Part shown: positions 3,241-54,891 of the stretch, in pieces
Position numbering within the stretch: the first letter of the stretch is position 1
How the letters are laid out: the number at the start of each line of letters is the position of its first letter
Assembly (NCBI GenBank): GCA_030770535.1
Contig: JASVEC010000014.1
Span: forward strand, 1,054,001 to 1,118,000
Direction of reading: 5' to 3'
Origin: Batkoa obscura
Lineage: Eukaryota
Length of the DNA stretch: 64,000 nt
Notes under the pieces: generated by a model
What the model saw: only the letters and a program-made list of their open reading frames with translations
Databases searched by the model: none
Told to the model about the DNA's origin: nothing
Translations under genes and position numbers: made by a program

Positions 3241-4201
3241 TCCTGCTTTAATATAAAATACTACTTTATACGTTATTATTTTGAAATATTAGTTGAGATA
3301 TTTATAATTTTAAGTTATTTAATATTTTAATCTGAAATTGAAGCCAATTATATAATGGATATGATTTTTAGCCTACTAAAAAAGCTGATTTTGGTTTATT
3401 TTTGCTACTAATCTTTGCATTTCCTAATTATAAATCATTGGTTGATTATTTTTAAAACTATAAAATAAGCAAGTAACATCCAGAAAAAGTATTTTAAGTC
3501 ATTATTGACTCAATTTAAACCAATTAAAATCAAAAGTTTAGTTGACAAAATCATATTGCCAAAAAGTCAAGACTCAAAAAACTTAAATATAATATCTCTT
3601 ATATTCAATAAAAACTGAACAACATCATTAATACAATATTAATATAAAACAATTAACTCTCACAAGAAAATTCCTGGATTTCTGCTTTATCTTACTCTGA
3701 AAGTCGCTATAGAACCTTCAATTTTTTTTGTAGTTATCAATTCTACTAAACTTAAGTAGGTAAGAAGCAGGTAATAGCAAGTGAGTGAGATTGATTTAAT
3801 ATGATTTCAAAGTATTACTAATGAGTTTGTTTTAATTTTTAGTATCCAAGTAACAGTCAAGTGATAGAAAAAAGGGTCTAAGGTTCGGCATAGCATTTGT
3901 TGATTGTTCATTGCTGAGAAAGCCAGGTAAAACTTCTAATTATATTAAACAATCACTAAATATTTTGTTGTTTTTTTTCTTTTTTTTAAATATAAAAAAA
4001 CACTGTGACTTATAGTATTATGATTTGTAACATTATGATTATTTTTATTTTTTTTATTTTTTTTATTTGTTTAAACACTTTTAAAAACTATTTAGATATT
4101 GAATTTGCCTTTAATAAACTATTTATTGTTGCTTTACTCGAATTTAAATAATACGTTTATAGCTACTATAAAAAAGAAAGTGTACATATAATACTTCATA
4201 T

Positions 4202-4299
4202 GGGGATGTATTTTTGTGTTTAAGAATTTTACTACCACTTTTTCCGCTTAAATAGCGTTTAAAAATGGAAAAAATAATGAAGTCAAAAAAAACACTCCC
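4202..4299. mobile_element. ~98-bp MITE (Sola-like non-autonomous family)
   Basis: GGGGATGTATTTTTG...AAAAAAACACTCCC termini, TSD ATAT on both sides. Confidence 0.85.
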
Positions 4300-5363
4300 A
4301 TATACTAGAATTTAGTATGATAATCAAATACAAATGATTCTGAGATTAAGCACAATGTAGTCTTCGATTAACATGTAACAAGCTTTACCAATTTGATATT
4401 TGACCAAGTATATATTACTTTTCAACATTAAATAGAGTCATGTCACAACTAGCCTTTGATAAGATAGGTTTAGATATATCCATATTGTTAATTATGTTCT
4501 TACTTTATTTTACTTCATTTGTAAATGTTGCTTTCTAGTGATAACAAAATTTATAAACCAATAATAAACTCGTCAAAATCATTGTTTTTCTAAATATATA
4601 CATACTTATGTTGACTATTAATACTTTCGATTTTGCAATTAAAATTTATAAAAGCTATATTATGATGCTATTAAACGGAAACCCCATACTAACAAAAAAC
4701 AAAACTCAATATATATCGAGGTTACTTTAACTAAAATATAAATTTTAAAACCAAAAATAATACCATTATTCAATATACCTTAATGTCTTAGTTTTTGGAA
4801 AACCTTTATAAGTTTATTTAAAGCTGAAAGTGTAACTTCACTTATATATTTGATATCAAAAGCAATACCAAAAGACTAGTCATCTGTATAAAATACAAAG
4901 GTATATTTATATTTGGATATACTGTAATATGAACGACAAATCATATAACATATCATTCAGTTGATCCTATAAGTATATTAGAATTCTATTTTCATTAGGA
5001 ATTTGTGATTTAACTAAAGTTTAGATTTTAGAAACTTAAAACCTCATTTGATTTTACAAGTAAATCTTTCGCTCACTAGAAGAGAGGCTTATGTTAAATT
5101 TCAACACTCGTAACTAGAGAAGTGTTAATTTTTAGCCTATTCATATAGCATAATCCTTATTTAGTTATTAGATAATATATATATTTGTTCATTTCAAAAG
5201 TTATAATTTGATAAACTCATTTTAAGATATAAAATTTTGAGTAATTCGAAATTAAAAAATACCAATCACAATTCCTTTTCAATGTTAATTTTTTATTCAA
5301 ATAAAAGGAAAATTTCAAATTCAGAATTTAGTTTCACTTTTTAATTCTTAATTTAATAGAAAT

Positions 5364-6689: not shown

Positions 6690-9154
6690 GGGGTTGTCTG
6701 AATTAGTTTCATTATTTTATCCAATTTTTGAAAAATTTTGTATTTTAAAAACTTCGCTTAAAATTCTATAAAATCACATCTTTTATTAAAACAAAAGTAC
6801 CCAAACACAGTTCTAAATCATTCTATTATAGCTCATACTGTAAGTTAGTTGAATTTCTACTAGATCTTAAATACATGTTCTTATAAAGCTTAATTGAGAA
6901 ATATTTACTATCAACTGCTTTATAACCAACATTGTAGATTTATTATCAAATAAATAAACTATTTTAATGTTATAATTACATTATTAATATACTGCCAAGT
7001 TAATAAATAGCTGCATGGGAGGGAGTGGTTAGCCCCAAAACTATAATTAACCATCCCTATATAGTATAAGTAATAATAGTTTTTACATATTATTACAGTT
7101 ACTTGTTCTTTGACTATTTATTAACTTAGCTATTAATAACTTAAGTAATCCTAACATTTAACAATCTATTTCTATCATTCAACAAAGTACTTACTTGCTT
7201 AGTAAATATCGAAATTTTTAAATTCTCTGTTATCTTCGTAAGGTAAGCTGGGATCGATCTTTTAATTTTTCTGTTTTCTATAGACTCTATAACTTTAATT
7301 GGGACTATATCGCTTTTTTTTGATGTATCAGATACTGGATAACAATGTAGTTTATTGTTATGTTTAATAAAATGTAAATACTTCTTAATGCCCTGCATCT
7401 CTATTATTCTTTTTGTATTTTTGTTTCTTTTATACTTTTTAAAAATTATATCTGTTTTCCCATTATTAACAGTCGAGTTATTAATTTTATTATGCTCACA
7501 AATAAAAGCCTCAAATCTTGAAATTAATTGATCGATATCTTCTATTTTACCTAACGCTTCAAAACTACTTTTCCATTTTGAAAGGTTTCCAAAATGTCCA
7601 TCAACTATACTTTTTCCATGATGCTCAGCAAAAAAATTAAGATTGACATTCAAACTACTATTTATTTTATGAATTTCTTTAAACATATAGTGTAGAAACT
7701 CTTGGGATCTAAAATGATTTCCTGTATCTGCCCATATATTAATTTTTGTAAACTTTTTAAATAGAAGCTCTGTAGAGATTAAATCGATTAAACAATCTCC
7801 TGCATATGCTGAATCATGATTCAATATTTCAGATAAATAATCAAAGTAAACTTTGCCTATCGTTTTATCATCTTTTAAATATAATACACCAAAACCTAAT
7901 ACTGATATAGCTTGTTTATTATAATGATCTAGATTTATTGAATCTGGTCTTGTTCCTATTTCCATATTTTGTTTAAAATCTAAAACTATTATACAACTTT
8001 TGTTATTTAATTTTTTGATAGTTTCATTAAATGTGTTTTTTTGAGTATCAACACAGAATTTATGTAATTTGTATAATTTTTCTTCTTCGTTGAAAATTTC
8101 TTGTATCTCTGCTTTGTTTTTTGCTGTATTTATTTTATTTTCAAATAACTTTTTTCTAACTGTATACTGGGTACATATATTACATAGATCCGTTTTTCTT
8201 GCTGGATTTTTGAAATTAGTTGGTATATATTTAAAGAACGTTGACCTAGCTACTGCTTTATCTCTTAGATCATTCAAATATTTACTATATATCATTCTTC
8301 TACTTTTATTTAATATATATATATTATCTGATGAATATTTACTATCGTTATTTTTTTTATTAAATCTTGATGAAATAGTTGAATCATTTAGTAAATATTG
8401 TATGATAGTTTCAATTTGGTCATCTTTAATTTTTTTTGTATTTTTAATAATAGGTTTTAATGTTGATATTTTATTATTATTACTTGTTTTTGAATAATCA
8501 TATTGATTTCTATTTATATTAAACCCAAAACTCTTACATTCATCAAAAGAATATACTGAAGCTATAGTTGATAATAACGCTACTTGCTGACTTTTGTTTC
8601 CTGTTTCCCTTAAAGCACTAATTTTATACATTACTTGATTAAGTTTATTATTATCGATAGTAAACTTTGATAATATATCTTTTCTTTGTTTTGTTTTATT
8701 ATAAAATTCCATAAACCTTGGGTTGTTATAAGTAGCTCTTAAAATTGATGTAAATGAATTACAATGTTTATATTGTGTACTCCTCCCTATTGTATTGAAG
8801 TTTTCAAAAATTCCATTTCGAAGTTTAGTTATGAAAGTTTGCATTTTATTTTTATTTCAACAAAAAATAAAGTCAAATAAAGTCAAATAATTGTGTTTAT
8901 ATAATTATGTATTTATATAATTATATAATCATATAGTTATATATTATATATCTGTTAAATATCTAACAGAACTAACATAAAATACATAGTTAGGAAAATT
9001 AGCTATTTAAGAAAAGGAAACAATTAAAATAAGTTTTAAATAGAGACATTTAATTTTAGGCTTTTTAGATTTAACCGTTATATTGAACACAAACTTAAAA
9101 TTTTAAATTTGGATTAATTTCTAAGTAGATTCTGAAACCAATTAGGACAGCCCC
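6690..9154 (-). mobile_element. Intact autonomous Sola-like (Sola2-type) DNA transposon, 2465 bp
   Basis: Left TIR GGGGTTGTCTGAATTAGTTTCA; right TIR (revcomp) GGGGCTGTCCTAATTGGTTTCA, 18/22 match; 4-bp TSD ATAC at 6686-6689 and 9155-9158; single long ORF inside. Confidence 0.85.
7141..8844 (-). CDS. Transposase, 567 aa, DDD-type (Sola-like)
   Basis: Uninterrupted ORF with KTDLCNIC...H (Zn-binding-like), VLDFKQN, WADTGNHFRS and FFAEHHGKSIVDGHFG motifs; lies between TIRs. Confidence 0.85.
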   Translation of the reverse strand: MQTFITKLRNGIFENFNTIGRSTQYKHCNSFTSILRATYNNPRFMEFYNKTKQRKDILSKFTIDNNKLNQVMYKISALRETGNKSQQVALLSTIASVYSFDECKSFGFNINRNQYDYSKTSNNNKISTLKPIIKNTKKIKDDQIETIIQYLLNDSTISSRFNKKNNDSKYSSDNIYILNKSRRMIYSKYLNDLRDKAVARSTFFKYIPTNFKNPARKTDLCNICTQYTVRKKLFENKINTAKNKAEIQEIFNEEEKLYKLHKFCVDTQKNTFNETIKKLNNKSCIIVLDFKQNMEIGTRPDSINLDHYNKQAISVLGFGVLYLKDDKTIGKVYFDYLSEILNHDSAYAGDCLIDLISTELLFKKFTKINIWADTGNHFRSQEFLHYMFKEIHKINSSLNVNLNFFAEHHGKSIVDGHFGNLSKWKSSFEALGKIEDIDQLISRFEAFICEHNKINNSTVNNGKTDIIFKKYKRNKNTKRIIEMQGIKKYLHFIKHNNKLHCYPVSDTSKKSDIVPIKVIESIENRKIKRSIPAYLTKITENLKISIFTKQVSTLLNDRNRLLNVRIT

Positions 9155-9459: not shown

Positions 9460-10791
9460 TTATTCTTTCTTTAAAAATCGAAATAAATCTGAAACTAAAT
9501 ATAATGATCCAGTAACAATAATAATACTATCTTCGTTATTCTTATGTTCTACTTTCTTCAATATATCTTTAAAACAATCTTCAATATCATTCATCTTTTT
9601 AATCTTATTTTTATCTTTCATTAACTTTAAACTTACTATTTCCATCTTCTCTAATTCTTCTGTTTGTATCCAAGGCATACCCATAGGTTGTGAAAATTTA
9701 GTTAAATAGATATCGCTCTTTTCTTTTAACTCTTTTGTCACCAAATACTCAAAATTGCTTTTAAAGTCTTTACCTTTCGTTGTACTTAATATCCAATATA
9801 TATTTTGAAACTTCCTATTGTTATCCATTTTAGTAATAAATTTATTTAATTCTATTGCTGCAGCTGGGTTATGAGCCCCATCACATAAAATGTTCATTTG
9901 ATTATATTTTCTAAATTCGATTCTACCTGGCCAAACAGTGTCTTTTATTCCGTTAATAATATTTTGTTTATTGATTTCATATCCTTGAATATTTTCAATT
10001 AACTCCATACATTCAATACTAATACCTAAATTCATCAGTTGAAATTCCCCATTTAAATTCAATATCAAATCATATTTGTTTCCTTTCTTCGAGATATATT
10101 CGACTCTTCTACCTTTTGGTGGAAGTTGACTAAATTGATAATCTTCAATTGCTTTTCCTTTAGTACTAATAACATATTTACATTCCATCCTATTACACTC
10201 TTCAGTTAACACCTTCATAACTTTTTCTTCTTGTTGACCAATTACTACCTTAACTCCTTTCTTTAATATACCTGCTTTTTGTAAAGCTATCTCTTGTACA
10301 GTATCACCTAATATTGCTTCATGATCCATTGAAATAGAACAAAACACACAAAGTAACGGATTACTAATAACATTGGTTGCATCTAGTAAACCACCAAGAC
10401 CTACTTCTATTATAGCTAAATCAACTTTTTGCTGGGAAAAATGTATGTACATGATACACGTGGTTACCTCAAAATTAGTCAATTTTAAGTTTAATAATAA
10501 TTCGACAGATTGTATTTTGGACTGTATTGAATTGTATTCCGATAATTCAATTATATTCCGATTAATTCGAATAGCATCATTTTCAGTTAATAGATGAGGA
10601 GAATTAAATTTACCAATTTTTAATTTAGGGTAAATGTTAGTTGAGTCATTTAACTTTAAGAATATTGATTCAATATAACTAGTTACACTACCTTTACCAT
10701 TAGTACCAGCAACATGAATACATTGATAATCATTTTGAGGGTTATTAAAATAATTCAATAAAGTTCGAATTCGAGTTAATGAAAAATCCAT
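9460..10791 (-). CDS. FOL3: Dihydrofolate synthase / folylpolyglutamate synthase (FolC family), intronless
   Basis: IHVAGTNGKGSV, FNSPHL, EVGLGGLLDATN, WPGR, DGAHNP and TGSLYLV motifs. Confidence 0.92.
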   Translation of the reverse strand: MDFSLTRIRTLLNYFNNPQNDYQCIHVAGTNGKGSVTSYIESIFLKLNDSTNIYPKLKIGKFNSPHLLTENDAIRINRNIIELSEYNSIQSKIQSVELLLNLKLTNFEVTTCIMYIHFSQQKVDLAIIEVGLGGLLDATNVISNPLLCVFCSISMDHEAILGDTVQEIALQKAGILKKGVKVVIGQQEEKVMKVLTEECNRMECKYVISTKGKAIEDYQFSQLPPKGRRVEYISKKGNKYDLILNLNGEFQLMNLGISIECMELIENIQGYEINKQNIINGIKDTVWPGRIEFRKYNQMNILCDGAHNPAAAIELNKFITKMDNNRKFQNIYWILSTTKGKDFKSNFEYLVTKELKEKSDIYLTKFSQPMGMPWIQTEELEKMEIVSLKLMKDKNKIKKMNDIEDCFKDILKKVEHKNNEDSIIIVTGSLYLVSDLFRFLKKE

Positions 10792-21252: not shown

Positions 21253-21716
21253 TATGAAATCTGGTACTCAGTGTTTAGAGTCAAAAACAGCTATTGCTTG
21301 GTTGACTACACTACAAGTCGAAAGGTCTTAGTTTATGTGACTAAGATAGACTTGGATTATGAGGAATAGCACATAATAGGTTACAAGCTATATAAGACAA
21401 ACGTAATAGACAATACTAATGTAAAATCTACGTAAAATACTATTAAGAAAACCTAGTGACTTTATTAAATGTTCGAGATATCAGGGAATAATTCAGTTAA
21501 AAAGCCTCGAGCTATTATGTTTTAGAATCTCTTTTATACTCTGATAAGTATAAATATCAAAACGAGGGGAGAATATTCTTTGAGACGAAGATAGAAATTC
21601 TCATATCAAATCAAACTAAGAACGTGGGATTGATTTTCTCTGAACTTGAGAACACAACAGCTTAGGCGATTATTATGCTATAATTAACCATGGGACTGAC
21701 AAAGCGATATTTCACA
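21253..21716 (-). mobile_element. Solo-LTR-like repeat, 464 bp (copy 1)
   Basis: Termini TGTGAAAT...ATTTCA(T)A; near-identical reverse complement of 21946-22409; no TSD found. Confidence 0.7.
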
Positions 21717-21945: not shown

Positions 21946-22409
21946 TGTGAAATATCGCTTTGTCAGTCCCATGGTTAATTATAGCATAATAATCGCCTAA
22001 GCTGTTGTGTTCTCAAGTTCAGAGAAAATCAATCCCACGTTCTTAGTTTGATTTGATATGAGAATTTCTATCTTCGTCTCAAAGAATATTCTCCCCTCGT
22101 TTTGATATTTATACTTATCAGAGTATAAAAGAGATTCTAAAACATAATAGCTCGAGGCTTTTTAACTGAATTATTCCCTGATATCTCGAACATTTAATAA
22201 AGTCACTAGGTTTTCTTAATAGTATTTTACGTAGATTTTACATTAGTATTGTCTATTACGTTTGTCTTATATAGCTTGTAACCTATTATGTGCTATTCCT
22301 CATAATCCAAGTCTATCTTAGTCACATAAACTAAGACCTTTCGACTTGTAGTGTAGTCAACCAAGCAATAGCTGTTTTTGACTCTAAACGCTGAGTACCA
22401 GATTTCACA
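21946..22409 (+). mobile_element. Solo-LTR-like repeat, 464 bp (copy 2)
   Basis: TGTGAAAT...ATTTCACA 8-bp inverted termini (TG...CA); TATAAAA at 22124 followed by AATAAA at 22196, an LTR-like order. Confidence 0.72.
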
Positions 22410-22532: not shown

Positions 22533-23854
22533 CATATTATCTTATGAATATTTACTATCATTATTTTTTTTATTAAATCTTGAAATAGTTCAATTATTTA
22601 GTAAATGTTGTATAATAATTTCAGCTCGCTCATCTTTAGTTTATTTGTATTTTTAATAATAGGGCTGTAGTGTTAATATTTTATTATTATTAATTGTTTT
22701 TGAACAATCATATTTATTTTTATTCATATTAAATCCAAAACTTTTGTATTTTTATGTTTAACTATTAACAATTTTTCCGCTCAAATAGTGCTTAAAAAAA
22801 TGGAAAAGTAATGAAACCGAAAAAATATCCCCCATATCAATTAGTTAATTTCAAGATTTGAGACTTTCGTTTGAGAACATAATAAAATTAATAACTCGAC
22901 TGTTAATAATGGGAAGACAGATGTGATTTTTTAAAAGTATGAAAAAAACAAAAACATAAAAATAATAATAGAAATACAAGGCCTTAAGCATTTACATTTT
23001 ATTAAACGTAACAATGAACTACATTGTTATCCAGTATCTGATAGATAAAAAAAGCGATATAGCTCCAACTAAAGTTATAGAGTCTAACAGAAAATATAAA
23101 AATTAAAAGACCAACTCCAGCTTATCTTATAAAAACAGCAGAAAATTTGAAATTTTCAATATTTACTAACCAAATAATTTGTTAAATTATAGAAATCACT
23201 TATTAAATGGAGATGTTTTTTTTGGCTTCATTACTTTTTCCATCCTTTAATAAGTGCTAATTGAGTGGAAAAATTATTATTAAAGCTCTTAAACACAAAA
23301 ATACATCCCCAAATGTTAATATTATTTAAGTTATTAATAGCTAAGTTAATAAATAGTCAAAGAACAAGTAATTACAATAATAAGTAAAAACTATTATTAT
23401 GTTAATTGTATTACATAAGGATAGTCAATTATAGTTTTAAGACTAACCACTCCCCCTCATGCAATTACTTATTAACTTAGTAATATATTAATAATGCTAA
23501 TTATAACATTAAAATAGTTTATTTATTTGATAGTAAATCTGCAATGTTAGTTATAAAGCAGTCAATAATAAATGTTTCTCAATAAAGTTTTATAAAAATA
23601 TGTACTCATTTACATACTGCAACTTTGACTAATATTAATATATATGTTATATTAGTAAAAGCCTTGTTAATCTGGAAATTTTTGTTGGATATAGTAAAAA
23701 TTCAACCAACTTACAGTACAAACTACAATAGAATAATTTAGAGCTGTGTTGGGGTACTTTTGCTTTTTAATAAAGAATTTGTTTTTGTAAAATTTTAAGT
23801 GTTGTTTGAGTGGAAAATTTGCTAATGAAATCCTTAAATATAAAAACATATCCC
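22533..23854. mobile_element. Rearranged degenerate copy of the Sola-like element with three MITEs or MITE parts
   Basis: 22533-22745 matches 8322-8535 in direct orientation; 22840-23795 matches ~6770-7530 inverted; MITEs at ~22745-22833, 23209-23310 (TSD AAAT) and a half-MITE at ~23795-23854. Confidence 0.8.
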
Positions 23855-27147: not shown

Positions 27148-27850
27148 GGGGATGTCAGAATCGGTTTCAGAATTTATTTAAAAACCAATGCAGCTTTGAA
27201 GTTTTTAAATTTATAAGTCCTTAACATGATTAGTCAAATTTAACTTAAAGAACTTATTTTAATTGATTTATTTTTAGTAAATAATTGATTTTTTTAATTA
27301 TATACTCTATATTATTTTTATTAAATGTTTAATGGATTTATAGTATATAACATCTAAATATATAGTTCTTTGACTTTGTTTTCTATTAAAATAAAAACAA
27401 AATCTAAGCTTTTATAACTAATAACTAAACTTCGAAATGGAACTTTTAAAAATTTTGATACAGTAGAGAGAAGCTCATTATATAAACGTTATAACTCATC
27501 TAGATCAATTTCAACAACCATTCATAATAACTCAGAGTTTATGGAACTTTATGATAAGATAGAAGAAAGAAAAGATAAATTATCAAAGTTTAATATTAAT
27601 AATAAAACTTAATCAAGTAATATATAAAATTAGTAGTTTAAGGGAAACAAGAAATAAAAACTAACAAGTAGGGTTATTATCAACTATAGCTTCAGTATGT
27701 TCTTTCGATAAATGTAAAAGTTTTGGATTTAGTATAAATAAAAATCAATATTGTGGCTATTCTTTTTGGTTTCATTACTTTTTCATTTTTTAAGCACTAT
27801 TTGAGTAGAAAAATTGTTAGTAAAATTATTAAGTAAAAGAATATATTCCC
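27148..27850 (+). mobile_element. 5' fragment of the Sola-like element fused to a MITE
   Basis: Starts GGGGATGTCAGAATCGGTTTCAG (TIR); carries a decayed transposase N-terminus (ITKLRNGTFKNFDTV...); ends in a MITE at ~27752-27850; AAAT on both outer flanks. Confidence 0.75.
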
Positions 27851-32340: not shown

Positions 32341-32469
32341 GTTATAGAGCTAAAAGTGTTGATTAAATAGAATAAGTATTACAATAGCAAGTTTCAGATA
32401 CTATGTAATTTTTTTAGTTCGCTTTATTAAAAAAGAATAATTGAATTTTTGAAATAATATTCCCAAGCT

Positions 32470-33476
32470 TTTTATTAAGCATGATTACTTAATGTATATG
32501 TTTTCTATTGATTTTTATAAAGCTAATGAAGCTTTAGCTAAGCTCTCTATTTCAAATGTATACTACAAAATGATAATCTTTCGTTCAGTAAATTATTTCT
32601 CTTACAATTGTTTTTTCTTTCAAAGAAATGCTACCAGAAAATGAGCCTTTTGAGTCAAAACGTTATGAGCTATTAAGTGTTTTATATGATTTTTTTATGT
32701 TGGCTTTGGTATAGCATTATTTACATTTTGCTGTAGAAAGTATTATAGAATAACTCAAACTATTTTAAAAAGGGCCTTTTTTATGTTCCACCTCTTTCAC
32801 ATCGCCAACATTTTTTAATTTAATTGTGTTTTCAGCTAAGTTTTTTTTGATCGATGCATTTTCCCATCACAATCCTTCTCTAAAAATTATTATGTTTTAC
32901 AGCTTATACATTAAGTATAATTCTCCTTATTTCTAAAAGGGGGAATATGTTTTAATCAACGCTAGCACATGGGATTTTTTTTTGGTTTCATCACTTCCAT
33001 TTCTCAAGCACTATTTGAGTGGAAAGGCTATTAGTAAAATTTTTCAACAAAAAAATATATCCTCATATTTTACAATACGCTGTTATTTGCCCTTCGATAC
33101 TCACTATTAGAGCATCAGGCGCCAAATAGTGTTCATTCTTGAAGTAGGTTGGCTTCAAGTATAATTATTCCATCTCTTCCTTTTTTAATATTTTATTAGC
33201 TTCTAACTTACCACCTATTTAACTACTAAGTCAGACAAACATGTTTTTTCTGGCAATTTATCTTCAACTCGCAAGCTTTCGTCTTTTTATGTACTATGCA
33301 GTTTATTATTTTTGTTCTTCTATCTTGCTTCAAAGCACATCTTAACTCCTGTTAAAAAGCTGATTTCAATATTGTAATTGACTTATTAAACAATTTGGAC
33401 ATGTCTATAAGACTATTAACATACCTGTAAGTAGTAATTTTAATACTGGATTGATTACTGTGTCTGTAGATGATAT
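32470..33476 (-). pseudogene. Full-length decayed duplicate of ZNRD2 (unit 1), with a MITE at 32971-33064
   Basis: Colinear nucleotide similarity to 38801-39752, e.g. ACAGCTTATACATTAAGTAT vs ACAGCTTACACATAAACTAT and AAAGCTAATGAAGCTTTAGCTAA vs AAAGCTAATAAAGCTTTGGCTAA; start ATG mutated to ATA; no long ORF. Confidence 0.85.
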
Positions 33477-33584
33477 AGTTTCAATCTCAAGTTTGAATAC
33501 GAGAAAGCTGAAGGTTGTGAAAGTTCATGTTCATGGTAATCTTTATAGGCAAAAATTTAAACCATTCTTTAATACTTGAAGACT

Positions 33585-33607: not shown

Positions 33608-33921
33608 TACTATTTTCCATGTTATTAGTAAAAGTGCTACGCGTTTAATCCCAAATTGCCGATTTGTTTGATATTTCTGCCAGGTTATTAAAAACTATAG
33701 TAGTACAATTAATGTAAATTTGATAATTTTAAGCAGATTAAAATGCATCTGTTTACAGTAACAAAACTCATAAAATATACATTTTGATTTGTAGAAAGTT
33801 AGTTAATTTGAAAAGTTTAATTGGCAAGGAGCTTTTAGAAGCCTTCCAAAATTGAATTGGAAATACTGTAGAGATGATTCCTCATTATCTTTATTTAAAC
33901 TTAAATAATATTCAATTTAAA

Positions 33922-34944
33922 ATGAAATCGAAGCCGAAACGTATAAGTAATGAAGACAGGGAAAGGATTGTTGACTCCTATATCAATGGATCGCGTCAAC
34001 AAGAAATTGCTAAAATAATGGGCTTTAGGCCTAGGACTGTTTATACTATTATAAAGAAATATATTGATGGAGAGGATTATACTATAAAAGCAAGCAGGGG
34101 AGAAGGAGGAGAAATGAAGAAGAAAATTATGCCAGAATCCCAAAGGAAAATGATTCAGTCTTGGGTTGATGAAGATTCCACTATGTCAATAAATGCAATA
34201 AAAAAGAAATTGATGAATGAAATAGAGATCAAAGTAAGCGCAGACATTATAAGCAGAAGCTTAAATGACTTTAATTATTCTTTCAAACGTATCAATTTAG
34301 CATCTCAAAACAATGACACCCTTACTTTAGAATTTAGAGCTTTTTATGCCAATAACTTCATAAATGACATATTGAAGCTTAATGACTCTAGAGTTATTTT
34401 TATAAATGATGCAACATTCAACATTACAATGCGTACAATTAATAGAATAACTAAGAAAAAAATAAAAGTTGATCCATTTAACAATATGCTCCGTAAAAAA
34501 AACGTATCGATATGTTGTGGTATGAATAAAACCGAAATTATTGAATGGCAAACTCAACCAAAGCGCTTCAGTACTGAATCATTTTATCAATTTATTAAAT
34601 CAATTCTTTTTAAACTTACTCAAAAGAATATTAAAGAAGCAGTGATAATTATGGATCATGAGTACATTGAAAAAGATCTAAAGATCAAAGAATCCATTGA
34701 AGCAAGCGATCACACGTTAATTTGCTTACCACCTTATTCTTTGTTTCTAAATCCTATTGAATATATGTATGCTAAATGGAAACAATTAGTCAGGGCAAAT
34801 GGTCCACAAAATGAAGATGAATTATATAATGTTTTCAACAGTGCTTTATCAGAAATAACTCACACTGATTGTAAAGATTTCTATGAGCGTATGCTCGATT
34901 TTTTGCCTAAATGTATAGGAAAAGAAGAAGTACTTTATGAATAA
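33922..34944 (+). CDS. IS630/Tc1-derived protein A (HTH + winged helix + DDE_3-like domain, ND34E), probable domesticated transposase
   Basis: EDRERIV..Y..G...EIAK..G...RTV..II HTH; YSFKR linker; VIFINDATF, IIMDH and LPPYSLFLNPIE with 34-aa D-E spacing; no TIR or TA TSD seen. Confidence 0.85.
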   Translation: MKSKPKRISNEDRERIVDSYINGSRQQEIAKIMGFRPRTVYTIIKKYIDGEDYTIKASRGEGGEMKKKIMPESQRKMIQSWVDEDSTMSINAIKKKLMNEIEIKVSADIISRSLNDFNYSFKRINLASQNNDTLTLEFRAFYANNFINDILKLNDSRVIFINDATFNITMRTINRITKKKIKVDPFNNMLRKKNVSICCGMNKTEIIEWQTQPKRFSTESFYQFIKSILFKLTQKNIKEAVIIMDHEYIEKDLKIKESIEASDHTLICLPPYSLFLNPIEYMYAKWKQLVRANGPQNEDELYNVFNSALSEITHTDCKDFYERMLDFLPKCIGKEEVLYE

Positions 34945-35214
34945 ATATGTATTTATGGTTTCATTGTCATTTAATTTTTAGTTATTTGAAAGTTCCATTT
35001 TTCAGATTTCGATCTATTATGTTGTATTTGTCTTTTGATGATAATTCTACAAAAACAGGTGATTTTAAAAGGATGATTTTAATATAAAATCGAATGTATA
35101 TGGATAGTAAATATAATGTTAGCACAATTCTTTGTAGTTATAGCACAATTCAATAACTTATCTATTTAAACTGAACCACCGCAAGTTGTTGACAGCTTAC
35201 TTTTTCTAGCTGTT

Positions 35215-35620
35215 TAGCACGGCTCAAGTAAACCAAAGAGGCCTCCACAATTTACAGCAGCAACAATAGCTATCACATATTCCCATTTAAAACTCATAAT
35301 TTCAAAAATAAAGACAGACTAATGCTTAGCACTATATGTGGACGTTTTTTTGGCTTCATCACCTTTTCCATCTTTTAAGCGCTATTTGAGTGAAAAATTT
35401 TTTGATAAAATTTTTAAACACAAAAAATACATCCCTATATTATCTTTTGGTCATAATTGAGATAGATAATGATAGCTTTTAGGAGGTCATAAAGCTTGAA
35501 ATCCGTTAATACCAACACTAGTTAAAAGTATATTGTGTCTCCGTGTGAAATTTGATATTAAGTTGATTGCAGTAAAAGTTAAGGAGTAGAAAAAGTCCAA
35601 ATAAATTCGTTAAGCCTCAG
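35215..35620 (+). pseudogene. Decayed duplicate of the RRP41 3' exons (unit 2), with a MITE at 35338-35436
   Basis: GATAATGATAGCTTTTAGGAGGTCATAAAGCTTG vs RRP41 CGTAATGATAACTTTCAAGAAGTAATGGAGCTTG; MITE TSD ATAT. Confidence 0.7.
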
Positions 35621-35734
35621 AGCTAATGGCATAGTTAAATAGATAAACTAAAGATAACAGATATAAATACAATTTTAAGCCTCGGTATTTTATTAAAGAA
35701 TAATGATATAATTTTAAAAGTCTGTTTAATCTAA

Positions 35735-36745
35735 ATAATTATTTAATACCGCTGTATTTTATATCGTTTTCTTTGTTATCTAATAGAGTTTACTTTAAAT
35801 GCTCTATCTCAGATACATTGCTATATAATAAAGAGTTATTGCTTAACAATTATATTTTTCTTCGTTTGTGGTTTTCCTGTCAAGGAAATGGTATTTGGAA
35901 AGGACCCTTTTAAGTAACATTCTTAGGTGGGCCTTTTTCTATTGGCTTTAGTATAGCATTAGAAATTTTAGTACACAAGATATGGGCATGTATTTGTGTT
36001 TAAGAATTCTACTAACAATTTTTCCGCTTAAATAGTGCTTAAAAAATGGAGAAATAAATGAAACAAAAAAAACACCCTTGTATATAAAAATATTTAGTCG
36101 ATATCTCCATAACACCTCCCTTTTATATACCAACTCTTTTTAGTCGCTTTTATTTTGTGTTTTATCTGGAATTTCAGGTAGGTTTATTCATGCGTATGGA
36201 CTGTTGTATTATGAGTCTTTTTTGAAACGTAGTTTGTTTCATAGCTCATATATAATCTATGCTTCTCTTTATTTCTAGCTAGTGGAGGATATGTTTAGTT
36301 AATTATCATTTTCAAATTAATGTACATTATTACCTCTTGATATTTGTTATTAGAGTATAAAGTGTGCAACATCGCTTGTGTTTAAAGTAATTTGGTTCGA
36401 CATATTTCATTCATGCCATTTCATTTCCTGTTAGGTCAACTTTCCTTTAACTTACCATCTCTTTAACTAGTAAGTGTAACAATTCTTTCTCTTTCTGGCT
36501 TTATCTTCAGCTTCCATAATTTTCTCCTTTTATGTCTATTCTTTTTTATCTCTGTCAGACAATGCAAAGCGCAATATTTTTGTTTTTCTACCTCATATCA
36601 AAGGACACTTTAATGTCACATAGTAGCCTGATTTGATTTGTTTGTTATGCTAACCAAATGACTTTGAAATATTCATTGGGTCATTGTTTTGTCTTTGATT
36701 AAACATTCAGATAAAAACTTTTTATTCTATCTGTTATTGAGCTAC
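35735..36745 (-). pseudogene. Decayed duplicate of ZNRD2 (unit 2), with a MITE at 35984-36079
   Basis: CTGTCAAGGAAATGGTATTTGGAAAGGACCCTTTTAAG vs CTGTCGAAGAAATGTTATGCGAAAATGATCCTTTTAAG; TTACCTCTTGATATTTGTTATTAGAGTATAAAG vs TTACCCCTTGACATTTGCTATTAGGACATAAAG. Confidence 0.8.
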
Positions 36746-36951
36746 TTTTAAGTATAGTTTTGTTTAGAAAAATTGAAAATATTAATCTTAAGGCAAAGTT
36801 AGCATAAAAGGGCAAAGTCATATAGCATTTTTCAAAATTCAAAACTAGCCAACCAAAAACAATTTGACCTTAGTTCTCTATGTATTTGAAAAATGATAGG
36901 CAATTATTTTTTGACATCATTAATAATTTAAACAATAGTTCAATATATAAA

Positions 36952-38034
36952 ATGAGATATAATCTTATTAGCAATGAAGACAGAGAAAGGATCGTCGATT
37001 CCTATATTAATGGATCTTGCCCAAGGCTAATTGCCAAAGTGATGGGTTTTAAGCGTAGGACTGTTCACAATATTATAAAAAAATATCTTGATGGAGGGGA
37101 TTATAGACGACAACAAAAACAGAAAAAAGCAGAGCTAGATCCTAGAAAACGAATTGTCGATTCTAAAAGTGAAATTATACAAGCTTGGGTTGATGAAGAC
37201 TGCACCATATCATTAAATACAATGACAAAAAAACTGAAGGATGAAAAGAATATAGACTTAGGCATAACAGGTATACATAGACGTATGAAAGATTTTAACT
37301 ACTCTTTTAAGCGTATAAGTTCTGCTGATCAAAATAGTGGGTCAAATCACCACAAAAAAAAAAGTACTGATGAAAGTAATGATCTGGTTGCCCAAAAAAG
37401 TGATTTCTCTACGCTAGAAATGAGGGCTTTTTATGTTGGTATTTTTGTTAGTGAAATAGCAAGACTTGATGATTCTAAAGTGTTTTTTATAAATGAAGCA
37501 ACTTTTTGTATTACAACACGTACAAAATATAAAAAAGAAGATATTATAAATAAAAAGTTTCCTGTTACTGGCCCTGGATTCAATACAAAAAACATTTTGT
37601 TATGTTGCGCTATGAATAAGCATGCAATAGTTGAGCATCAGACTCAGTTACATTCTTTTGATGAGGAATCATTTCATCAATTTATTCAAGTAGTCATCCT
37701 TAAGTTTACTCAAATCAATATAACAGAAGCGACAATAATTATGGATAGCGTATTTGTTGATAACAATCCAAGTATTAGAAGACTAATCGGAGCAAGCGGC
37801 CACAGGTTGATCTGTTTACCGCCAAACTCACTGTTTCTAAATCCTACTGAGTCCATCTATACCAAGTGGAAGCAGTTAATCAGAGAAAAAGATCCGCAAA
37901 ATGAGAGAGAATTGTTTGAGACTGTTAACAATGTTTGGTCAGAAATAACAAATGCCGACTGCAAGTCGTTTTATGAGCATATGTTAAGCTTTATACCAAA
38001 ATGTTTACAAAGAATGGAGATAATTGATGAATAA
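36952..38034 (+). CDS. IS630/Tc1-derived protein B (ND34E), probable domesticated transposase
   Basis: Paralog of A and C: VFFINEATF, IIMDS, LPPNSLFLNPTE; ~21-aa in-frame insertion after YSFKRI. Confidence 0.85.
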   Translation: MRYNLISNEDRERIVDSYINGSCPRLIAKVMGFKRRTVHNIIKKYLDGGDYRRQQKQKKAELDPRKRIVDSKSEIIQAWVDEDCTISLNTMTKKLKDEKNIDLGITGIHRRMKDFNYSFKRISSADQNSGSNHHKKKSTDESNDLVAQKSDFSTLEMRAFYVGIFVSEIARLDDSKVFFINEATFCITTRTKYKKEDIINKKFPVTGPGFNTKNILLCCAMNKHAIVEHQTQLHSFDEESFHQFIQVVILKFTQINITEATIIMDSVFVDNNPSIRRLIGASGHRLICLPPNSLFLNPTESIYTKWKQLIREKDPQNERELFETVNNVWSEITNADCKSFYEHMLSFIPKCLQRMEIIDE

Positions 38035-38394
38035 CATTTGATTAATACTTTTGTGTTGTTATCATGATTATTATTTTCTGTTTTGATACCTTTGTTTTAC
38101 AATGTGTCTTTAGGCTACACTTATTTTTTGTTAATAATAAGCTTTAATCAGCCTTGCGTAAATAGGATAGCTATGTTTAAAAGCATTGTTGCATAAATTT
38201 AAGAAATAAAAAGTAAATATAAAATGATATACAGCATCATTTTTGTATTTCATAACTTAAAACATAAAAGAACCATTAGTTAATACAGGAACTAAAAAGC
38301 ATAGCCAATGGTTTTAGCAAATGTTACACACTACGCCTTGTCATTTTAGCAATGAATTTATAATTAGTTGATAGCCTCTGTTCTACCTTTAGCA

Positions 38395-38690
38395 TTATTA
38401 AACTAAATTGAAGGTCCATTGCCCTTGTATCTAGAAATGACATAGCTATCTCACTACTCAGTGCAAGAGCGTATTATTTTAAATAAGTAATCTATTGTAC
38501 TTTAGTATTTGATAAAATTTATGTTTAGACTAGATGCAATCTGATAATGGTAGCTTTCAAGAAGTTATGGAGCTTGTGATCCATGACTATCAACAGGCTA
38601 AAGCTATTTTGGATTTAACTGTGAGATAAGATATTAATTTGCCTTCAGAAAATAATAAGGTCTCAAATAAGCCAACTAAAGTCCATTAAA
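38395..38690 (+). pseudogene. Decayed duplicate of the RRP41 3' exons (unit 3)
   Basis: GATAATGGTAGCTTTCAAGAAGTTATGGAGCTTGTGATCCATGACTATCAACAGGCTAAAGCTATTTTGGATTTAACTGTGAGATAA aligns to the last RRP41 exon (32190-32280) and contains a premature stop. Confidence 0.85.
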
Positions 38691-38800
38691 TTATAGAGTC
38701 GATAACTTAAACAAAAGAACTGCAAAGTGTTAAACTTGAGTCCAAAAGTCATGAATTTTATTTCATTTATTAAAGTATAATAACAAAACTCAAAATCTGT

Positions 38801-39752
38801 TTATCTTGTATCGCTATTTAATGTCATTGTATTTTCCACTAATTTTTGTAAAGCTAATAAAGCTTTGGCTAAATTTTCTATCTCAATTATATTATTACTT
38901 TGGGATAATCTGTCATTAAGTGAATTAATTTTTTCTATAGCTATCTTTTCTGTCGAAGAAATGTTATGCGAAAATGATCCTTTTAAGTTAGAATACTGTG
39001 GACTACTAAAACTATCTTTAGATGACTTTACTTCTATTGACTTTGATGTAGTATTTGGTAAGCTCAACTATATAAAATATCAAAAAACGCTTTTATTGAT
39101 ACGGAAATAAATACCTTTTTTTTATACTCCATCTTCCTCAAGTCACCAGCGTCTTTTGGTTTAGCTGTAGCTTCAGATAGGTTCCTTTTTGCTCCATGTA
39201 TTTTTTCGTCGTAATCCTTTTCCAAAATGTATTGCGTTCCACAGCTTACACATAAACTATGCTTTTCTTTATTTCTGACTAATGGAATCTATTTCAATTA
39301 ATACTAATTTAAAAACAACTATTGTAAACTTACCCCTTGACATTTGCTATTAGGACATAAAGTATCTAAAAGTGCCCATCCCTGAAGTAGTTTTGCTCCA
39401 ATTGTTTCACTTATTTCGTCTCTTCTTTTCTTATTATTTCCATTAGCTTCTAAATCATCTTCTCTATTAACCGTCTCAGGAGATAAAGTTTCCCCTTTTT
39501 CTGTTACTATATCTTCAATTTGTAAGTTTTCCTCTTCTTTCGTGCCTAATTTTTTTTCCTCTTCACATACTGGACAGTGCAACACCTTTGTTTTTCTGTC
39601 TCTCATCAAAGGGCACTTCAATACCAGTTAGTAAAATGGTTTTAATAATATAATAAATTTACTGGACAATCTGGGCATATTTGTGTAGTCATTATCATGC
39701 CTTTAAGTAAGCATTCGGATACTAAACTGGCCGCTCTGTCCGTTGATGACAT
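38801..39752 (-). CDS. ZNRD2: ZNRD2/SSSCA1 (autoantigen p27) double zinc-ribbon protein, 4 exons
   Basis: MSSTDRAASLVSECLLKGMIMTTQICPDCP/CPLMRDRK...HCPVC and ISETIGAKLLQGWALLDTLCP..KC/IPLVR...LCVSC repeats. Confidence 0.88.
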
Positions 39753-39952
39753 GTTTCTAGTTTAAAGTCAAATACGAGAGCTAATAATAGAGAGGAGATT
39801 ATCTTCAAATATTTTAGGAGAAAATAGCATAAACTTTTTAACCCTTTAAAACCAGCCAACCAAAACTATTTTGGTCAGAAAACCATGTCAAAATAAAGTG
39901 CAATAAGTGATTTTTTTTAAACTTTTGTTTCATTCGTCATTTACTTCTCAAA

Positions 39953-40978
39953 ATGAAATACCAAAAAATTAACGACGAAGACCGAAAAAGTGTCATCAAC
40001 TCTTATACTGATGGAACCAACGCTACAAACATTGCCAAACAAACAGGCCTTAAACGTACCACAGTTCAAGCAATTATAAACAAATATCTAAATAGCGAAG
40101 ATTGCCCTGAAAAATTGAAATTAAAAGTTCAAGAAAAAAAAGCAGTACCTCAAGATAAGACCATATCGGAATCCCAGAGAGAAATAATGCATTCTTGGAT
40201 TGATGAAAACTGCAACACCCCAATAAAAGCTATAAAAGAGAAAATGAAGGATGAAATGGGATTAAATGTAAGCGAATCTTTAATAAATGAACATCTGAAG
40301 GCCTTTCATTTTTCTTTTAAACGTATTAATTTAGCTCCTCAAAATAACGATTCGTCTACTCTGGAAAACAGAGCTATCTATGCCAATAATTTTGTGGATA
40401 ACATAGAAAAACTCGATGACTCTAAAGTTATTTTTATAAATGAAGCAACATTCAGTGTTTCAATGCGTCGGAATAGAAAAGCCATAATTAAAAAACCAAA
40501 GTCAAACAAGTTTATTCCTGCACTTCGTACAAAGAATATATCAATGTGTTGTGCTATGAGTAAATGCGGAATAGTTCAATTTGAGGCTCGATTAAAACTT
40601 TTTGATATTGAGTCATTTGATCAATTTATTAAATCAATTATCAAAGAATTAAAGAAAAAAGGCATATCAGAAGCGACAATTATTATGGACAGTGCTCATA
40701 TTGACAAAGATCCAGCAATGAAGAAATTTATTGAATCAAAAGGGTATAATTTAGTTTCTTTACCATCCTATTCTGAGTTTTTAAATCCTGTTGAGGCCAT
40801 GTATACCAAGTGGAAGCAGTTAGTCAGAGGAAAAGATCCACAAAGTGAGGAAGAATTATTTGAAGTTTTAGAACAAGTTTTACTAGAAATTTCAGAGGTT
40901 GATTGTAAAGGTTATTTTGAACACATGCTTAGTTTACTACCAAAATGTATCAGAAAAGAAGAGATCCTTAATGAATAA
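39953..40978 (+). CDS. IS630/Tc1-derived protein C (ND34E), probable domesticated transposase, head-to-head with ZNRD2
   Basis: VIFINEATF, IIMDS, LPSYSEFLNPVE; its ATG is 200 bp from the ZNRD2 ATG. Confidence 0.85.
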   Translation: MKYQKINDEDRKSVINSYTDGTNATNIAKQTGLKRTTVQAIINKYLNSEDCPEKLKLKVQEKKAVPQDKTISESQREIMHSWIDENCNTPIKAIKEKMKDEMGLNVSESLINEHLKAFHFSFKRINLAPQNNDSSTLENRAIYANNFVDNIEKLDDSKVIFINEATFSVSMRRNRKAIIKKPKSNKFIPALRTKNISMCCAMSKCGIVQFEARLKLFDIESFDQFIKSIIKELKKKGISEATIIMDSAHIDKDPAMKKFIESKGYNLVSLPSYSEFLNPVEAMYTKWKQLVRGKDPQSEEELFEVLEQVLLEISEVDCKGYFEHMLSLLPKCIRKEEILNE

Positions 40979-41492
40979 ATATTACATTTGTACTTTCATT
41001 TTTTGGTTTTTTTTATAACTTCTAGTTGTAAATTTAATATGTTCTTAATATACCTTTTTTCCAATAAATAAAATACTTTGCAGCAATTTGCTAGTAATAT
41101 AATTATATCTACAAAGTAGCGCAATATAGGACATAGATATATATAAAGTAAAAGTCAAACCAATAGCGGTAGTGATATTTCCTGCTCCAATATATTGCCC
41201 ATTTTTTGTGGAGCTCAATTTATCAAATTTTGATTTTTAAATTAGTAGCTGAAGTCTTGGTAGAAAATATCACTTGAAACTCAATACAATGTTTCCAACA
41301 GAAAATATAACACTATTTGATTTTACTTTTTTCACAGCCAATTATCCGGGAAATCAAGTTCTTAGCCTTCAAATGAAATCATCAAATTAATTTTAGGATA
41401 GATTTCTAGTTTTCAATAGTTAATGAATTGGATACTTTCTATTAAAAACAATCTAAAAAGTCCAACCGCTATATGCTTTTTTTTAAGTTCAA

Positions 41493-42614
41493 ATGACATC
41501 GATTACCCGAAAGAAAAGTTTAGTATGAATAATGAAGTGAGAAAAATGATTATTAAGTTTATATTAAGGAAAATAATATAAAAGATATTCTTAGAATAAC
41601 AGGCTACAAAAAAAACTACTGTTTATGACATAAGAAATTATACTGAGAGGAAAGGTCAGAGTAGAAAATCGAGAGCAGTACCAAGACTTAATTCGAGAGC
41701 CCTATCAGATAGTCAAGAGAAACCTATACGAAGTTGGGTTGATGAAGATTGCAAAAGTATGACGCCAGCAATAAAATAGAATCCGTTAAAGGAAATGAGG
41801 GTAAATGTAGGCCGATCAACTACATCAAGATGTACAAAGGCATTTGATTGCTTTTTGAAGTGTATTTATTTAGCCATTCAAGATGAAAATTCAGTCCCTC
41901 AGGATAATGGTTTAGATATGCTAGAAATGAGATCTCACTATACTAGCATTTTTCTAAATAAAAAATTAATTTTTGATGACTTTAGGATATTTTTTATAAA
42001 TAAAGCAACATTTTCCATTACAATGCGCACCAAGTATAAAAGGAGAAAATTAAAGTTGGAAAGCTTACTTCCCTCGGTCCTGGATTCAAAACAAAAGATA
42101 TATTACTGTGATGTTATGAATAAAAATGGGATAATCAAACATCAGACTCAACTAAACTTTTTTGATAGAGAATCTTTTTTTCAATTTATTGAATCAATTA
42201 TAGACAAGTTTGCTCAAATGAATACATCGGATGTAATAATAATCGTAGAAAATATGCTAATAAAGATCCAAATGTTAGAAAGCTCATTGAAGTAAGTGAA
42301 CACAAATTCTCTGTTTCTAAACCCTGCTGAGTCTATTTATACCAAGCGGAAGCGGTCAATCAAAGAGAAAGATCCGCAAAACGAAAGAGCATTGTTTGAA
42401 GCTGTTGGCAGTATTTGATCAGGATTATCAGAATCTAATTATAATGATTCTATAACATATGGAGATATATTCTTTTGTTTAAGAATTTTACTAACAACCT
42501 TTCCACTTAAATAGCGCTTAAAAAGTGGAAAAAGTAACGAAGCCAAAAAAAACACCCCTATATACTACATCTTTTATCAAGGTGTATAAAAAAAGAAGTA
42601 ATAAATGATAATAA
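41493..42614 (+). pseudogene. Fourth, pseudogenised IS630/Tc1-derived paralog D, with a MITE at 42461-42559
   Basis: Frameshifted fragments MNNEVRKMII / ITGYKKTTVYDI / RSWVDEDC / IFFINKATF / FLNPAESIYTKRK..EKDPQNER / SRCIKKEVIND; MITE TSD ATAT near the 3' end. Confidence 0.85.
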
Positions 42615-53512: not shown

Positions 53513-54891
53513 TGAGATGTCTGAATTGGTTTCAGAATTGTTTAAAAATTAATTCAAGTTCTAAATTTACAAGTCTCTTAATGTGTGATTAATAATTGGA
53601 TTTAAGAAGCTTAAAATTAAATAAAATTTAACTTGAAAGACTTGTTTTAATTTATTTTTAATTTATTTTTTTAATCCTATGTTTTATACTATTTTTATTA
53701 AATATTTAATAGATATATAATATATAGTTATTTGACTCTATTTTTTATCGAAATGATAATAAAATCCAAGCTTTTACAATTAAACTTCAAAATAGAATTT
53801 TTAAGTTTTAATATAATAGAGAGAAACACATTATATAAGCACTATAATTCGCTTACATCAATTTTAATATCTATTTATAATGGCCCGAAGTTTGTAGAGT
53901 TTTATAATAAATAATACATATTGTTGAAACTTAATAACAACAATAATAAACACTTATTAAAAATATATTGTAACATTTTTTTTGGTTCACCATTTTCATC
54001 TTTTAAATACTATTTGAGCGAAAAAATTGCTAAAACTCTTAAATACAAGAATACATCCCTATATATAGGAGATTGTTTAATTAATTTATACCTAAAGAAC
54101 CTTTATTCAAAAGTATGAAATCTGGCGCTCAGTAGTTAGAGTCAAAAGCAGTTTTTACTTGATTGGCTTAGCCGCAAGTCGAAAGGTCTTGGTTTATATA
54201 ACTAAGATAGACCTGAATTATGAAGAATAGCACATAATATGCTATAGACTATGTAAGACAAGTAAAATAGACAATACTACTATAAAATATACTTAAAATA
54301 CTGTTAAGAGAATTTAGTGGCTTTATTAAATGTACGAAATATCAGAGAATAATTCAGTTAAAAAGCCTCGAGCTAATATGTTCTAAAATCCCTTTTATAC
54401 TCCGACAAGTACAAATATTAAAACGAGAAGATAGTATTCTTTGAAATGAAACTGGAAATTCTCATAGCAAATCAAACTAAGGGGGTTTGAATTGATTGTT
54501 CCCGAACTCGAGAACACAACAATTTAAGTGATTATGCTATAATCAACCATGGAGCTGACAAAGCGATATTTCATATAGTATTGTAATACTTTATTCGTTT
54601 GATAGCAAACCTGCAATGTTGACTACAAAGCAGTCAATAATAGATATTTCTTAATGAAATTTTATAGGAATATGTATTTATTTACATACTACAACTTTGA
54701 TCAATATTAATATATAGATTATATTAGTAAAAACTTTGCTAATCTGGGATTTTTCATTAAATTTAATAGAATTTTACTACTCATAATATAAACTATAATA
54801 AAATAATCAAAAATTGTATAAGTACTTTTATTTTTTAAAACATGGAATATTTAAAAACTCAATAAAAAACGAAATCAATTAGGACATCTTT
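53513..54891 (+). mobile_element. Internally deleted, decayed Sola-like element containing a MITE and a solo-LTR-like repeat
   Basis: Both TIR remnants present (TGAGATGTCTGAATTGGTTTCAG; GAAATCAATTAGGACATCTTT); transposase 5' remnant at ~53760-53910; MITE at ~53969-54060. Confidence 0.78.
54114..54575 (-). mobile_element. Solo-LTR-like repeat (copy 3, diverged)
   Basis: Colinear with 21253-21716 (TATGAAATCTGG...CTGACAAAGCGATATTTCATA) with many substitutions. Confidence 0.75.

Follow-up and report, generated by a model that had tools for sequence, protein, structure and literature searches.

We analyzed a 64,000-nucleotide stretch of Batkoa obscura DNA (contig JASVEC010000014.1, positions 1,054,001 to 1,118,000; hereafter the window), AT-rich eukaryotic DNA that carries an array of four genes, A to D, derived from an IS630/Tc1-type Asp-Asp-Glu (DDE) transposase. 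In all four the first catalytic Asp is replaced by Asn, and we refer to the family as ND34E after its triad and the 34 residues between the second Asp (Asp2) and the Glu. Our results indicated that the products of A, B and C are probably domesticated proteins, retained by the host, that bind DNA without cutting it. This reading is carried by the single origin of the family, its fixed Asn, the joint loss of other residues, the tandem duplication of the array, selection on the open reading frames (ORFs) and their presence in spliced RNA. The four copies were as follows.

33922..34944, + strand: copy A, an intact single-exon ORF of 340 aa with PAI/RED-like helix-turn-helix (HTH) and DDE_3 domains, triad N162-D245-E280
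36952..38034, + strand: copy B, an intact single-exon ORF of 360 aa, triad N181-D265-E300
39953..40978, + strand: copy C, an intact single-exon ORF of 341 aa, triad N163-D246-E281
41525..42430, + strand: copy D, a pseudogene that keeps FINKA and is sister to B

The first-pass annotation had read Asn for the first catalytic Asp in each copy, and the sequence agreed: the motif was FINDA in A (Asn codon AAT at 34405-34407, N162), FINEA in B (AAT at 37492-37494, N181) and in C (AAT at 40439-40441, N163), and FINKA in D (AAT at 41999-42001). We aligned 163 rows (the 4 window copies and 159 database proteins), 107 of them D-D-E. Among the 157 rows covering this site there were 133 D, 12 N, 6 G, 4 H, 1 T and 1 Y, so the column is that of the first catalytic Asp. 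The exact 34-residue spacing was present in A, B and C, and the variants MDHEYI, MDSVFV and MDSAHI, and YSLF, NSLF and YSEF, were also read as claimed. Copy B carries a 21-aa insertion in the linker ahead of the catalytic domain. Copy D has 5 in-frame stops, Glu at Asp2, an Asp2-Glu spacer of 26 (an 8-codon loss after Asp2), and a 2-bp deletion at 42167 that is polymorphic among strains. A, B and C share 45-51% amino-acid identity, and each matched Pfam DDE_3 above the cut-off and had N-terminal HTH matches; a CENP-B_N match in A reached only E 0.055, and the catalytic domain is DDE_3, not DDE_1. The active-site structure prediction that had been proposed as a check was run on C (AlphaFold; predicted local distance difference test score 85; 12-row alignment), and it placed N163 on the first core strand, D246 at the end of a later strand and E281 at the start of a helix. 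The best PDB matches to this model were Mos1, SETMAR and Sleeping Beauty (Foldseek E 7e-10 to 7e-8).

The family extends beyond the array. Six further proteins, in records named Neoconidiobolus thromboides, lay on four other contigs, bringing it to at least 10 copies over at least 5 contigs.

P0001 and P0019: family members outside the array, on a 339-kb contig
P0010 and P0066: family members outside the array, on a 31-kb contig
P0041 and P0092: family members outside the array, on two other contigs

Judging from close accession numbers, the pairs outside the array appear to be clustered. P0041, P0092 and P0066 were annotated as short or degenerate. Pairwise identity across the family copies was 36-72%, and Asn was present in 7/7 copies that cover the first-Asp site, which make up 7 of the 12 Asn rows in the alignment. 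The ten copies formed one clade (SH-like approximate likelihood ratio support 100 in a 42-row quick tree, and 100/100 in a 15-row careful tree), and FastTree gave support of 1.0 for the 7 members among the 136 of 163 rows in its tree. The stem of the clade was long (0.57-0.66), and the sister rows P0002, P0034 and P0025 were all DDE. A ten-copy clade with only DDE sisters indicates that the Asn arose once, on the long stem, before the family spread. The earlier claim that the Asn is older than the triplication therefore stands and can be widened, in that the Asn predates the entire 10-member family and not the array alone. The possibility raised with it, that the closest relatives might also have Asn, was set aside by comparing the protein sequences of P0002, P0025 and P0034, all of which have Asp. 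Inside the family the tree was star-like, with B and D paired (84/90).

Additional copies were detected through assembled reads. At 36950-37000 (in B) and 34717-34842 (in A), other contigs from DNA and RNA runs matched briefly and then diverged, which points to further paralogues at other genomic sites, one or more of which occur in RNA. We rejected the view that the matches in strain FSU 785 are orthologues in another species: the neighbouring glutathione S-transferase was 100% identical to an N. thromboides FSU 785 protein, and these matches are thus paralogues within the same species. No family member was seen in other named species, in searches that were insensitive (members are concealed within 50% clusters, P0010 escaped the word search, and most rows carry no species name). 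The 4 loci returned by a metagenome scan were distant members of IS630, each with Asp wherever the site aligned, a viral scan gave no match to the family, and an Atlas search gave DDE_3 clusters only.

The Asn was accompanied by the loss of other residues of the transposition machinery. We compared the clade at positions conserved in at least 83% of the 107 DDE relatives. G166 (0/6), G176 (0/6), R177 (0/6), H251 (0/8) and T110 (0/5) were lost, G181 (kept in 2/6) and P275 (kept in 2/8) were mostly lost, and F284Y was fixed, while R140, E/D164, D246, N278, P279, E281 and W287 were retained. Identity in the clamp loop was 0.21 within the clade versus 0.49 among near DDE relatives. Codon differences in this loop (172-192) were 0.63 at second versus 0.46 at third positions, values possibly inflated by alignment error, compared to 0.20-0.27 versus 0.41-0.44 in PAI, RED and the core; only the clamp loop and the HTH linker had second codon positions as divergent as third positions. 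According to PMC4820933, the Sleeping Beauty clamp loop serves paired-end assembly, inter-subunit contacts and target capture, and H249 helps to position D244. A profile alignment set DNxxxH against Sleeping Beauty DNDPKH, with H251 matching H249. Loss of the clamp loop and of the His indicates that the transposition machinery was dropped, rather than a single residue. The first-pass annotation had also allowed that the adjacent acid could stand in for the missing Asp. The neighbouring Glu is ancestral (97% of the 107 DDE relatives), and it was therefore rejected as a compensating acid. Changing the first Asp to Asn normally abolishes strand transfer, an activity that A, B and C probably lack. 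The D64N/D116N double-mutant integrase serves as an inactive control (PMC3526291), and our literature search found no usable direct first-Asp-to-Asn transposase mutant. At the N terminus, profile matches were to Sleeping Beauty PAI and Pax paired domains, and the PAI recognition helix was near that of the nearest DDE relative (KRTTVQAII versus KRTSVYSII). The second recognition helix, in RED, varied between paralogues.

The ORFs of A, B and C are under selection. Pairwise codon maximum likelihood (ML) gave omega values of 0.18-0.23 among A, B and C, and omega=1 was rejected (twice the log-likelihood difference 52-66, P<1e-12), consistent with the earlier proposal that the fold is maintained, here by purifying selection. 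Pairs with pseudogene D gave 0.32-0.53. NG86 estimates (0.28-0.37) were superseded by ML with kappa. There were 0 frameshifts in A, B and C versus 8 and 7 in the co-duplicated copies of the neighbouring SSSCA1 gene, and the indel rate of the pseudogenes predicts 9-10 frameshifts per 1-kb ORF; in neutral simulations at d>=0.2, 0/2000 sequences were stop-free. Strain comparison yielded 44 distinct single-nucleotide polymorphisms (SNPs) among the listed differences (40 of 110 and 40 of 400 rows). Among those listed, A, B and C had 3 nonsynonymous SNPs versus 13-15 expected from the non-coding rate (Fisher P 0.002-0.005), and 3 synonymous SNPs versus 3.5-5.5 expected. The extra SSSCA1 copies decayed while three transposase-derived copies stayed, which indicates that dosage or divergence of these proteins was selected.

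Copies A, B and C are present in RNA, and contigs of A and B in a diverged relative. All three SSSCA1 introns appeared as joints in runs X8 and X10, and exactly their 139 nt were missing from X2 and X9; lacking these introns, all four runs, none of which is catalogued as RNA, derive from RNA. Contigs of X2, X8 and X9 covered A, B and C, and spliced-RNA contigs came from three studies for A and B and from two studies for C. X10 is a relative, 5-11% diverged, with contigs of A, B, SSSCA1 and the bZIP gene, A and B there being candidate orthologues. Its contig of A was gene-sized (33778-34962, 88 differences in 1184 nt, 7.4%), and two gap-free pieces of B had 81 differences in 901 nt (9.0%). SSSCA1 exons 1-3 had 60 differences in 560 nt (10.7%) and the bZIP gene 5.3%, so that A and B were no more diverged than SSSCA1 exons 1-3. 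X10 had little or no contig cover of C, which carries no evidential weight. The array locus was found in all four DNA runs at flank depth. Pseudogene D had its own contig (41507-42574) in the spliced-RNA runs X2, X8 and X9; this transcript could be non-coding, or could be read-through from the bZIP gene.

The array arose by duplication of a unit of about 3.0-3.3 kb that holds the upstream gene's 3' exons, a minus-strand SSSCA1-like gene and, head-to-head with the latter, a transposase-derived gene. The host-gene features were as follows.

38801..39752, - strand: SSSCA1/Auto_anti-p27-like host gene, intact, 270 aa, supported by Pfam, introns of 47, 45 and 47 nt
32440..33480 (ends approximate), - strand: decayed SSSCA1 upstream of A, 8 frameshifting indels, with a miniature inverted-repeat transposable element (MITE) at 32962-33077
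35720..36720 (ends approximate), - strand: decayed SSSCA1 upstream of B, 7 frameshifting indels, with a MITE at 35977-36084
38388..38698, + strand: decayed last exons of the gene ending near 32349, 74% identity, score 220 versus a shuffled maximum of 63
35465..35608, + strand: weaker remnant of the Rrp41-like 3' exon in unit 2, blastn E 1e-6 to 38543-38683

The intact SSSCA1 lies head-to-head with C, 200 bp apart, and the other SSSCA1 copies are decayed. The gene ending near 32349 is presumably exosome subunit Rrp41-like, to judge from its translation. The exon remnant at 38388..38698 gives the left boundary of the duplicated unit, and that at 35465..35608 scored 81 versus a shuffled maximum of 73. 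Within 300 bp on either side of all four copies, the best inverted match was no better than in 20 shuffles, leaving room for old, eroded terminal inverted repeats (TIRs), and these copies had no TA target duplication. Co-duplicated host genes and the lack of inverted repeats together indicate tandem segmental duplication, not transposition.

A MITE of about 98-100 bp, unrelated to the transposase family, lies at the 3' end of D (about 42453-42567, no strand assigned). It had 20 matches in the window (e.g. 4197-4307, 32976-33072 and 35345-35440) and very high copy number in the DNA runs. Its ends are GGGGATGT..ACATCCCC (GGGG..CCCC), with a 4-bp target site duplication (TSD) in 9 of the 14 scored copies, and on these two features we rejected it as a TA-flanked target of the A, B and C proteins. 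It was possibly moved by an element at 6690-9154, which is an apparently intact DNA transposon with imperfect TIRs of about 24 bp starting GGGG and a 4-bp TSD, ATAC. This element holds a 567-aa ORF (7141-8844, - strand) with no Pfam match, whose motifs resemble those of a Sola2-type DDD transposase. Decayed relatives of it lie at 22534-23807, 27236-27751 and 53518-54838. Elsewhere in the window, 21255-21716 and 21946-22407 form a 462-bp inverted duplication, 99.8% identical and flanked by MITE copies, and a single-exon 443-aa ORF at 9460-10791 (- strand) has a Mur-ligase fold (Pfam Mur_ligase_M and _C), in a fungus.

A mechanism consistent with these observations can be proposed for A, B and C. 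The family derived once from an IS630/Tc1-type DD34E transposase and reached at least 10 members, and A, B and C were kept open by purifying selection. DNA binding is predicted for the N-terminal Paired-like HTH (PAI), through which A, B and C would act, with the RNase H fold likely serving as a structural or interaction module and the paralogues perhaps diverging in the second recognition helix. By analogy with the fission-yeast Cbp1 proteins, their job might be to occupy repeat- or transposon-derived sites in chromatin, repressing or organising them.

Several observations weigh against this interpretation. N, Asp2 and Glu are invariant though only 38 of the 180 core columns are, and invariance of these residues in paralogues of about 50% identity is more than a purely structural role would obviously seem to need. 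The identity of only 45-51% among the array proteins indicates that constraint is moderate. Up to 4 SNP differences lie beyond those listed, and P would be 0.12 if all were nonsynonymous. The RNA support consists of contigs, which give neither strand nor level and which also include pseudogene D; in X10 the contig of A is interrupted by a single unplaced gap and gives no codon reading. Of 200 bootstrap trees, 0% united the four array copies, a single clade being unrejected in the approximately unbiased test (p=0.15). After the Asn arose the family reached at least 5 contigs, a spread that needs segmental duplication or mobilisation, and P0092, on a different contig, is nearly identical to P0001 over the first ~85 residues. 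Moreover, neither a cognate DDE element nor a repeat serving as target was identified in this genome.

Part of this evidence would fit proteins that are domesticated yet enzymatic, with a one-metal N-D34-E pocket used for slow nicking, end-processing or phosphate binding in repair or recombination, cf. SETMAR. Paralogues sharing 42-65% identity all retain N163, D246, E281, E/D164, N278 and P279, three given columns would all be invariant by chance in about 1% of cases at a background of 21%, and catalytic core conservation is 0.54 in the clade versus 0.45 among near DDE relatives. We nevertheless consider residual catalysis unlikely. In enzymes with an RNase H fold both metals are bridged by the first Asp, and the family has lost H251 and the clamp loop. 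Degenerate mosquito relatives that carry N, G or H in place of the first Asp likewise keep Asp2 and Glu, which suggests structural retention, and the integrase carrying D64N/D116N is an inactive control (PMC3526291). Spread to at least 5 contigs, the star-like tree and one recent inter-contig duplicate would be expected of elements that are still mobile, whether through activity with Asn or through mobilisation in trans; omega<1 would then record selection for transposition. Such mobility is very improbable: the array was made by tandem duplication with host genes and has no TIRs, the same locus is present in four DNA runs at flank depth and probably in the diverged lineage, and mobilisation in trans would exert no selection on a dead ORF.

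Two further explanations can be considered. Dead subunits might join or out-compete a cognate DD34E transposase and poison its transpososome. The full transposase architecture with no added domain, the PAI helix resembling that of the nearest DDE relative, and an expansion and fast divergence that fit an arms race are compatible with such dominant-negative action; Dici CDS3 is a precedent for the retention of a transposase copy that lacks the triad (PMC13469147). We doubt dominant-negative action strongly, since the clamp loop, the inter-subunit contact, is the least constrained region, no DDE member of this lineage was found among N. thromboides-named proteins (7/7 looked up in the clade were Asn-type or without the site, and most other matches carry no species name), and the MITE that abounds locally has a TSD of 4 bp instead of TA. 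Neutral fossils awaiting decay would account for the decay of D, for the short or degenerate annotation of P0041, P0092 and P0066, and for a nucleotide divergence of 0.35 in A, B and C close to the 0.39 of the pseudogenes. Zero stops or frameshifts in three ORFs versus 7-8 frameshifts per co-duplicated host copy, an omega of about 0.2 and the SNP deficit largely refute this explanation, and its probability is close to negligible.

Retained, non-cutting DNA-binding proteins thus remain our preferred reading of A, B and C. As a bolder and rather unlikely extension, the family could be an expanded genome-defence arsenal, with diversified helices on IS630/Tc1/mariner (ITm) ends and a one-metal pocket gripping without cutting. 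bioRxiv 10.1101/2023.09.13.557621 gives 13.5% repeat for N. thromboides versus 71-92% for related Entomophthoraceae, with Tc1/mariner at 12-14% in two of them; if true, such an arsenal would help to explain the low repeat content of N. thromboides. A literature search with few subscription papers in reach found no description of the ND34E family and no domesticated fungal family from its lineage. Domesticated transposases whose triads have changed are already known; what is new is a fungal family that arose independently, expanded and is under selection, with an internal neutral control in its co-duplicated host genes. This gives a well-controlled example of how an early-diverging, insect-killing fungus domesticated a transposase, and it makes the host role of a dead DDE fold testable on small single-exon proteins of 340 aa.

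Compared to its nearest relatives, the family shares the layout of IS630-like DD34E transposases (P0002, P0034, P0025 and Anopheles gambiae LOC133393386, P0004), namely HTH-HTH-DDE_3, about 335 aa and the spacing of 34. Identity to the two nearest was 37-41%, and the best NCBIfam match was IS630 NF033545, below its cut-off. The parent group may be 'Gambol', with which only the spacing and the An. gambiae DD34E neighbour are consistent. Unlike these relatives, the family has Asn, degenerate DExG, clamp-loop GR..G, DNxxxH and YSP motifs and no TIR or TA TSD, and it sits at a fixed locus, duplicated with host genes. The fission-yeast proteins Cbp1/Abp1, Cbh1, Cbh2 and Cbt1-6 likewise form a fungal family of several genes, each a complete ITm transposase that was domesticated. 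According to bioRxiv 10.1101/2022.12.06.519325, they are 32-39% identical to active relatives, have degenerate triads in S. pombe, bind repeats (long terminal repeats) and repress retrotransposons. They differ in being pogo/Lemi (DDE_1, CENP-B-type HTH), conserved across species and functionally tested, whereas the ND34E family is defined by one shared Asn and its role is proposed by analogy; being pogo-derived, they make ND34E a works-like analogue and not a member.

Similarly, SETMAR/Metnase and pogo-derived genes of vertebrates are domesticated, with a changed triad residue and purifying selection, such as TIGD2 (DD34S), JRKL (DD34D/N) and POGK (DN35D) (PMC7386202; PMC8994322). The model of C gave a template modelling score of 0.76, by target length, against the SETMAR domain. 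In these named genes the second or third residue is changed, they are single-copy, and some are fused to SET, KRAB or ZNF; their omega is 0.05-0.09 versus about 0.2 here (PMC7386202; PMC8994322). Dici CDS3 of Diutina catenulata is also a fungal IS630-like derivative with no triad, a kept HTH and some purifying selection, but it lies inside an active TIR element beside an intact transposase, whereas the array copies have no element (PMC13469147).

Degenerate relatives of the same lineage also occur in Anopheles, annotated as host genes in which the first Asp is lost. Their triads were as follows.

P0005: NDE
P0023: NDD
P0056: NDE
P0006: HND
P0016: TEE

Outside the clade, the first Asp was altered in 16 of 27 non-DDE rows, with Asn in 5 of these. 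The Anopheles relatives differ from the array copies in their independent origins on the tree and in N-terminal extensions or a zf-AD fusion. Independently degenerate proteins with N-terminal extensions were P0005, P0006, P0016, P0023, P0035, P0056 and P0125, five of them named from Anopheles; a zf-AD domain in P0016 and P0125, weak in P0023, makes these candidate host-transposase fusion genes in mosquitoes. Since the first Asp was lost in these relatives as well, the Asn substitution is not unique, and together with the mosquito proteins our results suggest that this lineage was tamed repeatedly through loss of the first Asp.

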